From Escherichia coli (GTDB lineage Bacteria > Pseudomonadota > Gammaproteobacteria > Enterobacterales > Enterobacteriaceae): a stretch of DNA of 64,000 nt. Position 1 is the first letter of the stretch. Every line of letters begins with the position of its first letter. The stretch is taken from assembly GCF_003334405.1 (NCBI RefSeq), contig NZ_QOWM01000005.1, one strand, 5' to 3'. Both the position numbers and the translations under genes were made by a program. Below the pieces are notes generated by a model. The model saw only the letters and a list, made by a program, of their open reading frames with translations, made no database searches and was not told the DNA's origin. Below, piece after piece: positions 8,662 through 10,844 of this stretch.

Positions 8662-9813
8662 ATGTCACTTGTCACCGATCTACCCGCCATTTTCGATCAG
8701 TTCTCTGAAGCTCGCCAGAAAGGCTTTCTCACCGTCATGGATCTCAAGGAGCGCGGCATTCCGCTGGTTGGCACTTACTGCACCTTTATGCCGCAAGAGA
8801 TCCCGATGGCAGCCGGTGCGGTTGTGGTTTCGCTCTGTTCTACCTCTGATGAAACCATTGAAGAAGCGGAGAAAGATCTGCCGCGCAACCTCTGCCCGCT
8901 GATTAAAAGCAGCTACGGCTTCGGCAAAACCGATAAATGCCCCTACTTCTACTTTTCGGATCTGGTGGTCGGTGAAACCACCTGCGACGGCAAAAAGAAA
9001 ATGTATGAATACATGGCGGAGTTTAAGCCCGTTCATGTGATGCAGTTGCCGAACAGCGTTAAGGACGATGCCTCGCGTGCGTTATGGAAAGCCGAGATGC
9101 TGCGCTTGCAAAAAACGGTAGAAGAACGTTTTGGGCACGAGATTAGCGAAGATGCTCTGCGCGATGCCATTGCGCTGAAAAACCGCGAACGTCGCGCACT
9201 GGCCAATTTTTATCATCTTGGGCAGTTAAATCCTCCGGCGCTTAGCGGCAGCGACATTCTGAAAGTGGTCTACGGCGCAACCTTCCGGTTCGATAAAGAG
9301 GCGTTGATCAATGAACTGGATGCAATGACCGCCCGCGTTCGTCAGCAGTGGGAAGAAGGCCAGCGACTGGACCCGCGTCCACGCATTTTAATCACCGGCT
9401 GCCCGATTGGCGGCGCAGCAGAAAAAGTGGTGCGGGCAATTGAAGAGAATGGCGGCTGGGTTGTCGGTTATGAAAACTGCACTGGGGCGAAAGCGACCGA
9501 GCAATGCGTGGCGGAAACGGGCGATGTCTACGACGCGCTGGCGGATAAATATCTGGCGATTGGCTGCTCCTGTGTTTCGCCGAACGATCAGCGCCTGCAA
9601 ATGCTCAGCCAGATGGTGGAAGAATATCAGGTCGATGGCGTAGTTGATGTGATTTTGCAGGCGTGCCATACCTACGCGGTGGAATCGCTGGCGATTAAAC
9701 GTCATGTGCGTCAGCAGCACAACATTCCTTATATCGCTATTGAAACAGACTATTCCACCTCAGATGTCGGGCAGCTCAGTACCCGTGTCGCGGCCTTTAT
9801 TGAGATGCTGTAA
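8662..9813 (+). CDS. yjiM: 2-hydroxyacyl-CoA dehydratase (HgdB/D-component)-like protein
   Basis: ORF 8641..9813, start at MSLVTDLPAIF; cysteine-rich dehydratase-like fold. Confidence 0.8.
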   Translation: MSLVTDLPAIFDQFSEARQKGFLTVMDLKERGIPLVGTYCTFMPQEIPMAAGAVVVSLCSTSDETIEEAEKDLPRNLCPLIKSSYGFGKTDKCPYFYFSDLVVGETTCDGKKKMYEYMAEFKPVHVMQLPNSVKDDASRALWKAEMLRLQKTVEERFGHEISEDALRDAIALKNRERRALANFYHLGQLNPPALSGSDILKVVYGATFRFDKEALINELDAMTARVRQQWEEGQRLDPRPRILITGCPIGGAAEKVVRAIEENGGWVVGYENCTGAKATEQCVAETGDVYDALADKYLAIGCSCVSPNDQRLQMLSQMVEEYQVDGVVDVILQACHTYAVESLAIKRHVRQQHNIPYIAIETDYSTSDVGQLSTRVAAFIEML

Positions 9814-9822
9814 GGAGTGGCA

Positions 9823-10590
9823 GTGACATATTCGATTGGCATTGATTCTGGTTCTACCGCCACCAAAGGGATCTTACTGGCAGACGGCGTGATTACGCGC
9901 CGTTTCCTCGTTCCAACACCCTTTCGTCCGGCAACAGCAATTACTGAAGCCTGGGAAACTCTGCGCGAAGGGTTAGAGACAACGCCGTTTCTGACGCTCA
10001 CCGGCTATGGACGGCAACTGGTGGATTTTGCCGATAAACAAGTGACGGAAATCTCCTGTCATGGGCTGGGCGCACGGTTTCTTGCGCCAGCAACGCGCGC
10101 GGTAATCGACATCGGTGGTCAGGACAGCAAAGTGATTCAGCTTGATGATGACGGTAACCTGTGCGATTTCCTGATGAATGACAAATGCGCGGCGGGCACC
10201 GGGCGTTTCCTGGAGGTGATCTCGCGCACGCTTGGCACCAGCGTCGAGCAACTCGACAGCATTACCGAAAATGTCACGCCGCACGCCATCACGAGTATGT
10301 GCACAGTGTTTGCCGAATCAGAAGTGATCAGCCTGCGCTCAGCGGGCGTCGCGCCAGAAGCGATTCTCGCCGGAGTGATTAACGCGATGGCGCGGAGGAG
10401 TGCCAATTTCATTGCTCGTCTCTCCTGTGAAGCGCCGATTCTGTTTACTGGTGGCGTTAGTCATTGCCAGACGTTTGCCCGGATGCTGGAATCTCATCTG
10501 GGAATGCCGGTAAATACCCATCCTGATGCGCAATTTGCTGGCGCAATTGGCGCGGCGGTAATTGGTCAACGAGTGAGGACACGCCGATGA
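9823..10590 (+). CDS. yjiL: BadF/BadG/BcrA/BcrD-type ATPase (dehydratase activator-like)
   Basis: GTG start after SD aggag; SIGIDSGSTATKG actin-like ATPase N-terminus. Confidence 0.8.
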   Translation: MTYSIGIDSGSTATKGILLADGVITRRFLVPTPFRPATAITEAWETLREGLETTPFLTLTGYGRQLVDFADKQVTEISCHGLGARFLAPATRAVIDIGGQDSKVIQLDDDGNLCDFLMNDKCAAGTGRFLEVISRTLGTSVEQLDSITENVTPHAITSMCTVFAESEVISLRSAGVAPEAILAGVINAMARRSANFIARLSCEAPILFTGGVSHCQTFARMLESHLGMPVNTHPDAQFAGAIGAAVIGQRVRTRR

Positions 10591-10844
10591 AAGAGTTTTT
10601 ATTTTTATTTCACTCCACAGTCGGCGTCATACAAACCCGCAAAGCGTTGCAGGCAGCGGGCATGACTTTTCGCGTCAGCGATATTCCCCGTGATTTACGC
10701 GGCGGCTGCGGGTTATGCATTTGGCTGACCTGTCCCCCCGGCGAGGAAATACAATGGGTGATCCCTGGGCTGACTGAGTCAATTTATTGTCAGCAGGATG
10801 GTGTCTGGCGCTGCATTGCACATTACCGGGTTTCTCCGCGTTAA
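10587..10844 (+). CDS. small DUF3343-like protein, translationally coupled to yjiL
   Basis: 85 aa ORF whose ATG overlaps the yjiL stop (ATGA); [13 protein letters not shown]...[17 protein letters not shown] resembles the DUF3343 pattern. Confidence 0.45.

Follow-up and report, generated by a model that had tools for sequence, protein, structure and literature searches.

The question raised by the yjiM-yjiL-ytiA locus of Escherichia coli is what a single enzyme of the 2-hydroxyacyl-coenzyme A (CoA) dehydratase superfamily does in the company of an ATP-dependent activator and a small protein of 85 amino acids. The locus lies at positions 8662-10844 of a 64,000-nucleotide stretch (NCBI RefSeq assembly GCF_003334405.1, contig NZ_QOWM01000005.1), which is referred to here as the window. 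An earlier note had suggested that the trio may be an "uncharacterised redox or sulfur-handling module", which is a fair description. The best explanation overall is that the operon encodes a double-cubane cluster protein (DCCP) reductase system with a dedicated sulfur or selenium carrier; a probability of about 0.55 is given to this reading, a figure that blends the identities of the proteins with the hand-over of sulfur or selenium species between them. The identities of the three proteins, taken together, can be stated with high confidence. RefSeq already has names for all three, and the locus is real but already known.

YjiM matches NF040772, the family of the "double-cubane-cluster-containing anaerobic reductase", with 532 bits (cut-off 350), over positions 1-372 of the 372 in the profile. 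Its best solved relative is the DCCP of C. hydrogenoformans, DCCP_Ch (PDB 6ENO/7YYL; E = 4e-75; residues 26-383 aligned with 62-421), to which it is 39% identical over the whole alignment. Cys40, Cys59, Cys78, Cys93, Cys108, Cys273, Cys302, Cys304 and Cys335 of YjiM are invariant in the alignment with 6ENO, and every cysteine of DCCP_Ch in the aligned region is present in YjiM. Compared with the regular expression given in PMC7317905, the cysteine spacings of YjiM are off by between one and a few residues; the first cysteine spacing of 6ENO, the only one counted, is 18 residues and not the printed 19. YjiM/YjiL has been listed as a "class II" DCCP pair by Jeoung, Martins and Dobbek; it has a shorter N-terminus, and its substrate channel may therefore be open (PMC7317905). 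YjiM is, as predicted from this match and alignment, a class II double-cubane-cluster reductase.

The likeness to a 2-hydroxyacyl-CoA dehydratase subunit that was noted earlier holds at the level of the superfamily, in that YjiM belongs to PF06050 (2-hydroxyacyl-CoA dehydratase/benzoyl-CoA reductase), but the NF040772 score places the protein among DCCPs and not among dehydratase subunits. Assignment of YjiM as such a subunit was considered and rejected: it scores 95.8 bits on HadC (cut-off 700) and 19.9 bits on HadB (cut-off 750). No second gene for a PF06050 dehydratase-type subunit is present near yjiM, where the neighbours are mdtM, yjiN, yjiK, yjiJ and kptA, and the earlier remark that only one is present at the locus was therefore correct. 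None would be needed, because the characterised DCCP is a homodimer with an [8Fe-9S] cluster and acts with only its reductase (PMC7317905; PMC9351452).

YjiL had been proposed to be the ATP-dependent activator, and this is borne out by a score of 364 bits on TIGR00241 (cut-off 125) and by its matches in the PDB, of which HgdC is the closest (1HUX, 9e-53), followed by HadI (4EHT, 2e-52) and DCCP-R, the reductase of DCCP (7YYL_E, 5e-47). Two motifs of YjiL, NDKCAAGTGRF and CTVFAESEVIS, each with one conserved cysteine, align with HgdC 1HUX and HadI 4EHT; both cysteines are, we presume from the HgdC structure, ligands of a [4Fe-4S] cluster. YjiL is predicted on these grounds to be an ATP-dependent electron-injecting reductase ("activase/archerase").

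The chromosomal gene order in the window is mdtM-yjiN-yjiM-yjiL-ytiA-yjiK-yjiJ-kptA. On the plus strand, yjiM extends from an ATG at 8662 to a TAA ending at 9813 (383 amino acids), and GGAAGGA precedes its start in the table of open reading frames (ORFs) and the sequence. Nine bases separate its stop from the start of yjiL (9823-10590, plus strand, TGA stop; 255 amino acids), the ORF of which also opens at GTG 9817; the start in RefSeq is GTG 9823, six bases past an AGGAG. A translational coupling signal is located at 10575-10590 on the same strand and consists of a GAGGA Shine-Dalgarno sequence (10575-10579), seven bases upstream of the ytiA ATG, and an ATGA stop/start overlap (10587-10590) that is common to both genes, as the earlier note had observed in saying that the small ORF starts on the yjiL stop. 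ytiA (plus strand) runs from this ATG at 10587 to a TAA ending at 10844. The RefSeq boundaries of yjiM and ytiA, mapped onto the window, fall at exactly 8662 and 10844. The layout indicates that yjiM-yjiL-ytiA is one translationally coupled operon. Positions 8500-11000 are 100% identical to E. coli WG5, and the same region is found at 80% coverage or more in 5372 of 5426 complete E. coli genomes.

The 85-amino-acid product of ytiA had been likened to DUF3343 proteins. A hidden Markov model (HMM) search confirmed this, matching residues 4-59 to Pfam PF11823 (Se_S_carrier, formerly DUF3343) with E = 5.4e-13; the RefSeq label is "DUF3343 domain-containing" or "putative Se/S carrier" protein. All 17 aligned YtiA homologues match PF11823, and Phe8, Cys41 and Gly42 are invariant among these 17 at identities down to 15%. 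The Cys41 codon is at 10707-10709 (plus strand) and encodes the invariant cysteine of the family in a GCGL motif; the same conserved cysteine in DUF3343 has been reported by Lin et al. (2015; PMC5322559). Comparisons of ytiA with its orthologues in which the synonymous rate (dS) is unsaturated give ratios of nonsynonymous to synonymous substitution (dN/dS) of 0.08-0.28. The AlphaFold model of YtiA is a confident, compact alpha/beta domain with a predicted local distance difference test (pLDDT) score of 94.5. Foldseek of this model against the PDB gave nothing below E = 0.017, with a weak likeness to a PII/GlnK-like ferredoxin fold at a template modelling (TM) score of about 0.5; the YtiA sequence against the PDB gave chance-level matches only (E>=0.075), and NCBIfam had no family for YtiA at E<=0.1. 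An exhaustive search with the single YtiA sequence returned 44 matches, many of which are frameshifted fragments, and word-index searches with YjiM and with the DUF3343 alignment revealed no distant members among the matches listed, which are mostly from Enterobacteriaceae. A literature search for E. coli ytiA found only the unrelated ytiA (rpmE2) of B. subtilis.

Gene neighbourhoods were compared in the best-scoring 80 of at least 579 YjiM matches, with one genome per species and 6 kb on either side of yjiM. This set contains the YjiM-like subfamily and nearby paralogues, with class I DCCPs such as CHY_0487 left out, and comprises 29 gammaproteobacterial loci and 51 Firmicutes loci, the latter with YjiM relatives of 58-69% identity. 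Genes were called as the longest ORFs, and families were assigned by NCBIfam on representatives and spread by clustering or phmmer; a gene missing within 6 kb is not necessarily missing from the genome. Of the gammaproteobacterial loci, 28 extend far enough beyond yjiL for the next gene to be seen, and in each of them this is a PF11823 ORF; a truncated contig of E. albertii that carries the first 41 codons of ytiA brings the count to 29 of 29. The genera with yjiM-yjiL-ytiA include Escherichia, Citrobacter, Klebsiella, Kluyvera, Kosakonia, Cedecea, Hafnia, Morganella and Aeromonas, among others. The yjiL stop and ytiA start overlap by 1, 4 or 8 bases in 27 of the 27 gammaproteobacterial loci with both ends callable, through sequences such as ATGA or GTGA and TAATG or TGATG. 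This conservation, together with the family match and the constraint on the protein, identifies ytiA as a real gene.

The integrity of ytiA varies within E. coli. A C6 homopolymer in the gene (10734-10739, plus strand) is C5 in K-12 strains; in K-12 strain C600 this shifts the frame after codon 50 and results in a 57-amino-acid product, and RefSeq flags the C600 gene (locus L001, 6088-6344) as "frameshifted", a pseudogene. yjiM and yjiL are intact in C600, and ytiA is broken. On public contigs, the truncated 57-amino-acid form is found on 761 and the intact 85-amino-acid sequence on at least 1000. The standard laboratory strain K-12 is thus a natural ytiA mutant, which could mask phenotypes. 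In O157:H7, similarity to the window breaks off within the 3' end of ytiA, at 10797. The O157:H7 copy of ytiA is nevertheless intact and encodes an 88-amino-acid variant with a different C-terminus (L085, 4588-4854), and espX6, a type III secretion system effector gene, stands in place of yjiK (L085, 5166-7298). Because yjiK is exchanged for espX6 in O157:H7, yjiK lies outside the conserved unit.

An activase gene is present within 6 kb of yjiM, and mostly adjacent, in 64 of the 80 loci. In the Firmicutes, a PF11823 ORF accompanies yjiM within 6 kb in only 6 of 51 loci, and the co-occurrence of the three families, which the earlier note had proposed as a check, is thus complete in the Gammaproteobacteria and sparse in the Firmicutes. 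In a relaxed HMM search of the 80 loci, true DUF3343 matches had E<1e-15 and noise had E>=0.39; because of this clean gap, the Firmicutes absences within 6 kb are not an artefact of sensitivity. At least one gene for sulfur/selenium trafficking or a selenium cofactor is present within 6 kb in 11 of the 51 Firmicutes loci. C. intestinale (L031) has YjiM-YjiL-SelD-YedF-DUF3343-YqeC-MocA-YqeB-XdhC, with a gene for selenium-dependent xanthine dehydrogenase (SeXDH) a few genes upstream, and Acetobacterium (L054) has YjiM-YjiL-NifS followed by DUF3343 and YedF on the opposite strand. Three further loci of this kind are without DUF3343: a Bacillota metagenome-assembled genome (L057) has YqeC-YqeB-YedF-SelD-YjiM-YjiL-MocA and then hydroxylase subunits (SeXDH), and two Enterococcus loci (L053, L062) have YjiM-YjiL-SeXDH-MocA-NifS. 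SelD, YqeB and YqeC are beside yjiM in 2 of 51 Firmicutes loci (L031, L057), and SeXDH in 4 of 51. SelD, YedF, YqeB/YqeC, NifS and SeXDH are all absent from the E. coli window and from the 29 gammaproteobacterial loci.

Dorea/Faecalicatena genomes (L064, L070, L076, L079) carry a divergent operon of NifS, a 440-amino-acid DCCP, DUF3343 and activase, and this DCCP has an N-terminal extension and scores 512 bits on NF040772. This NifS-DCCP-DUF3343-activase operon is an independent second arrangement of the DCCP/DUF3343 partnership. The yjiM-like gene of the same loci is without its own activase and faces the minus-strand operon, which lies at about 2000-5900; one activase may serve two double-cubane proteins there. 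In four more Firmicutes loci a gene for a PatB-family C-S lyase (TIGR04350; L041 representative, 491 bits) is near yjiM, directly upstream on the opposite strand in L037, L041 and L048 and several genes downstream in L040; three of these four loci have no adjacent activase. The upstream gene of three distant DUF3343 genes, on contigs of 0.5-1.1 kb, is YedF/TusA-like twice and probably the C-terminus of a cysteine desulfurase once, the last judged by eye. Genes for a CoA ligase, a CoA transferase or an acyl-CoA dehydrogenase are not conserved next to yjiM in any of the 80 loci.

A mechanism can be proposed in which YjiL, by homology, would hydrolyse ATP and thereby drive an electron of low potential into YjiM's [8Fe-9S] cluster. 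YtiA would be produced in fixed proportion through translational coupling, and its Cys41 would carry a sulfur or selenium species, such as a persulfide, a perselenide or a related adduct, to be handed to the YjiM cluster, or received from it, for ATP-driven reduction. If this hand-over takes place, the module would function in sulfur/selenium mobilisation, with selenium the most plausible, and not in acyl-CoA dehydration. The hand-over is the likeliest of the readings considered for YtiA. A functional tie between YtiA and the reductase is favoured by the yjiM-yjiL-ytiA order with its overlap in 29 of 29 loci of Enterobacterales and Aeromonas, by the intact ytiA of O157:H7, by the second arrangement in Dorea and Faecalicatena and by the STRING neighbours in Slackia. 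Sulfur or selenium is suggested by the C. intestinale, L057 and Enterococcus loci, by the prevalence of SelD in genomes with NF040772 proteins and by the YedF/TusA-like and probable cysteine desulfurase genes ahead of other PF11823 genes. The hand-over is nonetheless put forward tentatively, with the odds somewhat against it, and several considerations tell in that direction. Carriage of sulfur or selenium by any PF11823 protein has no experimental demonstration in the literature. The YtiA partnership is not universal and is missing from most Firmicutes loci, and 40 of these 51 have neither a sulfur/selenium gene nor DUF3343 within 6 kb; in E. coli, too, no further selenium gene lies that close to the operon. 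ytiA is dispensable, at least in the laboratory, given that K-12 and a sizeable minority of the species carry the frameshift. In our own assessment, the reduction of a persulfide or perselenide is not obviously in need of an ATP-boosted electron of very low potential. Jeoung and Dobbek also suggest that YjiM, without the channel-closing helices, may accept a large substrate, either a CoA ester or something else (PMC7317905).

In a narrower form of the same idea, the operon would be a selenium-mobilising module that converts selenium bound to Cys41 of YtiA (or Se(0)/selenotrisulfide) to selenide for SelD, or that takes a direct part in making the labile Se-Mo cofactor found in selenium-dependent molybdenum hydroxylases. 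This version is considered unlikely; if true, it would fill an unassigned step of the "third selenium trait". NF040772 was built in the Haft 2022 preprint, in which 955 of 970 members are in SelD-positive genomes, and the preprint mentions YjiM and offers no mechanism. The table for selenium-dependent molybdenum hydroxylases of Haft and Self (2008) does not include yjiM or yjiL, and no literature placing either gene in that pathway was found.

Other explanations assign YtiA a different place. It could be a maturation factor that acts outside the catalytic cycle, by supplying the ninth bridging sulfide (or selenide) or otherwise helping to assemble the [8Fe-9S] cluster of YjiM. Translational coupling would suit a stoichiometric or assembly partner, PF11823 genes adjoin those of cysteine desulfurases and YedF, and a selenium-bridged double cubane has been raised, as a formal possibility, to explain the co-occurrence with SelD (Haft 2022). 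However, 45 of the 51 Firmicutes YjiM loci lack a neighbouring DUF3343 gene, and K-12 retains intact yjiM and yjiL despite its broken ytiA, which makes an assembly role quite improbable. The C. hydrogenoformans DCCP has reportedly been produced in a heterologous host in cluster-containing form, with no dedicated partner protein. The possibility that in E. coli the 85-amino-acid ORF has lost its function or is decaying, with yjiM-yjiL as the effective unit, would account for the pseudogene of K-12, the truncated form on 761 contigs and the lack of an NCBIfam model, but is highly improbable in view of the intact sequence on at least 1000 contigs, the dN/dS of 0.08-0.28, the presence of ytiA in 29 of 29 gammaproteobacterial loci with the coupling overlap kept, the PF11823 match at E = 5e-13 and the confident fold (pLDDT 94.5).

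Alternatively, as the dehydratase-like framing of the earlier note and Dobbek's "class II" suggestion would have it, YjiM/YjiL might reduce or dehydrate an organic compound, for example a CoA ester, and YtiA might be accessory, regulatory or protective, without any transfer of sulfur or selenium. YjiM is homologous to HadC, BzdN and BcrC and lacks the N-terminal channel-closing helices, its alignment beginning at residue 26 against 62 (PMC7317905); 36 of the 51 Firmicutes loci have unrelated, variable neighbours without any sulfur or selenium context. Against this, genes for CoA ligase, CoA transferase and acyl-CoA dehydrogenase are conserved beside yjiM in 0 of 80 loci, the dehydratase equivalog scores are far under their cut-offs, and the recurrent neighbours are SelD, YedF, YqeB/C, NifS and the PatB C-S lyase. 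An organic substrate is on balance unlikely, and the DCCP reductase system with its own sulfur or selenium carrier is preferred as the account of the operon.

The locus itself is ordinary and fully annotated, but the question behind it is not: double-cubane cluster proteins as a group still await a physiological substrate and PF11823 proteins a demonstrated function, and E. coli is the most tractable organism with a YjiM/YjiL pair. The presence of YjiM-YjiL in SelD-YedF-DUF3343-YqeB-YqeC operons turns the published correlation with SelD into a concrete, genetically testable hypothesis. What is new here is modest: this link to selenium-cofactor operons, at the level of a hypothesis, and a warning that ytiA is broken in K-12.

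Upstream of the operon, the 115-bp yjiN-yjiM intergenic region (8547-8661, plus strand) is the presumed site of its promoter. A sigma-70 scan gave no site in this gap; between 8300 and 11100 it gave a single site, which falls within yjiN (8473-8502), and promoter and terminator scans of 8300-11100 gave fewer sites than shuffled sequences. No FNR box was found in the gap, and the nearest FNR-like site, with two mismatches, is also inside yjiN (8448-8461). Rfam gave no match for the locus at E<=1. When up to two mismatches are allowed, the window as a whole contains 57 instances of the FNR-type pattern TTGATNNNNATCAA, none of them in the yjiN-yjiM gap, compared with 36.3 +/- 5.8 in 100 dinucleotide-preserving shuffles, none of which reached 57; codon or composition structure may be the simple cause of this excess. 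In nine loci, a 79-amino-acid ORF of Pfam DUF2164 (E = 1.8e-20) lies immediately upstream of yjiM (for example L009, 5679-5918), with hosts including Klebsiella, Superficieibacter and Intestinirhabdus, and others (loci including L007, L009, L013, L014, L016, L020 and L056); it has no counterpart in the 115-bp gap of E. coli.

Downstream, a 323-amino-acid ORF at 10798-11769, with a start that overlaps the end of ytiA, is the yjiK frame opened too early; the yjiK start in RefSeq is GTG 10909, 64 bases after the ytiA stop. In the river-water isolate KKa019 (NZ_CP091664.1), the insertion sequence IS26 is annotated within the yjiM-yjiK stretch, and the match is split in two pieces that span 3329 bases compared with 2501. 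In sbmA mutants, the yjiL-mdtM cluster influences how proline-rich antimicrobial peptides are taken up or how susceptible the cells are to them (Krizsan 2015, cited in PMC8801401); either yjiL itself or a polar effect on mdtM may be responsible. This is the only published phenotype found for the neighbourhood (5966-7225, 9823-10590), and it is silent on enzymology.

Among known systems, the closest is the DCCP/DCCP-R pair of C. hydrogenoformans (CHY_0487/0488; 6ENO, 7YYL), which likewise consists of two genes, one for a cysteine-rich [8Fe-9S] protein and one for an ATP-dependent [4Fe-4S] reductase. The N-terminus of YjiM is about 36 residues shorter than that of DCCP_Ch ("class II"), and the substrate channel is therefore probably open (PMC7317905). 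The E. coli operon further differs from this pair by the added, translationally coupled PF11823 gene, although the neighbourhood of CHY_0487/0488 is outside the sampled loci. HgdAB/HgdC and HadBC/HadI also combine proteins of the PF06050 superfamily with an ATP-driven activator, as in yjiM-yjiL, but HgdAB and HadBC are alpha/beta heterodimers that have [4Fe-4S] clusters and act on CoA esters, whereas the E. coli locus has one PF06050 gene, and YjiM has extra cysteines of the double-cubane motif compared with the 2-hydroxyacyl-CoA dehydratases. The class I benzoyl-CoA reductases (BzdNOPQ/BcrABCD/MbdNOPQ) are built from homologous modules (BzdN, 2.5e-19; MbdQ, 7e-51), but have four subunits, two different catalytic ones and two different ATPases, and the benzoyl-CoA reductase equivalog scores of YjiM and YjiL are far below the cut-offs. 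A 2025 paper reports an [8Fe-9S] cluster in class I benzoyl-CoA reductase (PMC11971306).

For YtiA, the sulfur relay proteins of the TusA/DsrE type, which are small, have a single cysteine and pass on a persulfide, provide a working analogy; YtiA has no sequence similarity or significant structural similarity to them, and membership is not claimed. The DUF3343 genes described by Lin et al. (2015) share the Pfam family, size and invariant cysteine with YtiA; because these genes cluster with those for YedF and selenocysteine lyase, DUF3343 was proposed there to be a selenium/sulfur chaperone (PMC5322559). The STRING table for Slackia in the same work lists among the partners of DUF3343 an activase, "2-hydroxyglutaryl-CoA dehydratase subunits", YedF and selenocysteine lyase, without comment (PMC5322559). 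In C. intestinale and Acetobacterium (L031 and L054), DUF3343 adjoins YedF, as Lin et al. (2015) describe (PMC5322559). Unlike these DUF3343 genes linked to YedF or selenocysteine lyase, the gammaproteobacterial ytiA is coupled to the reductase pair alone.

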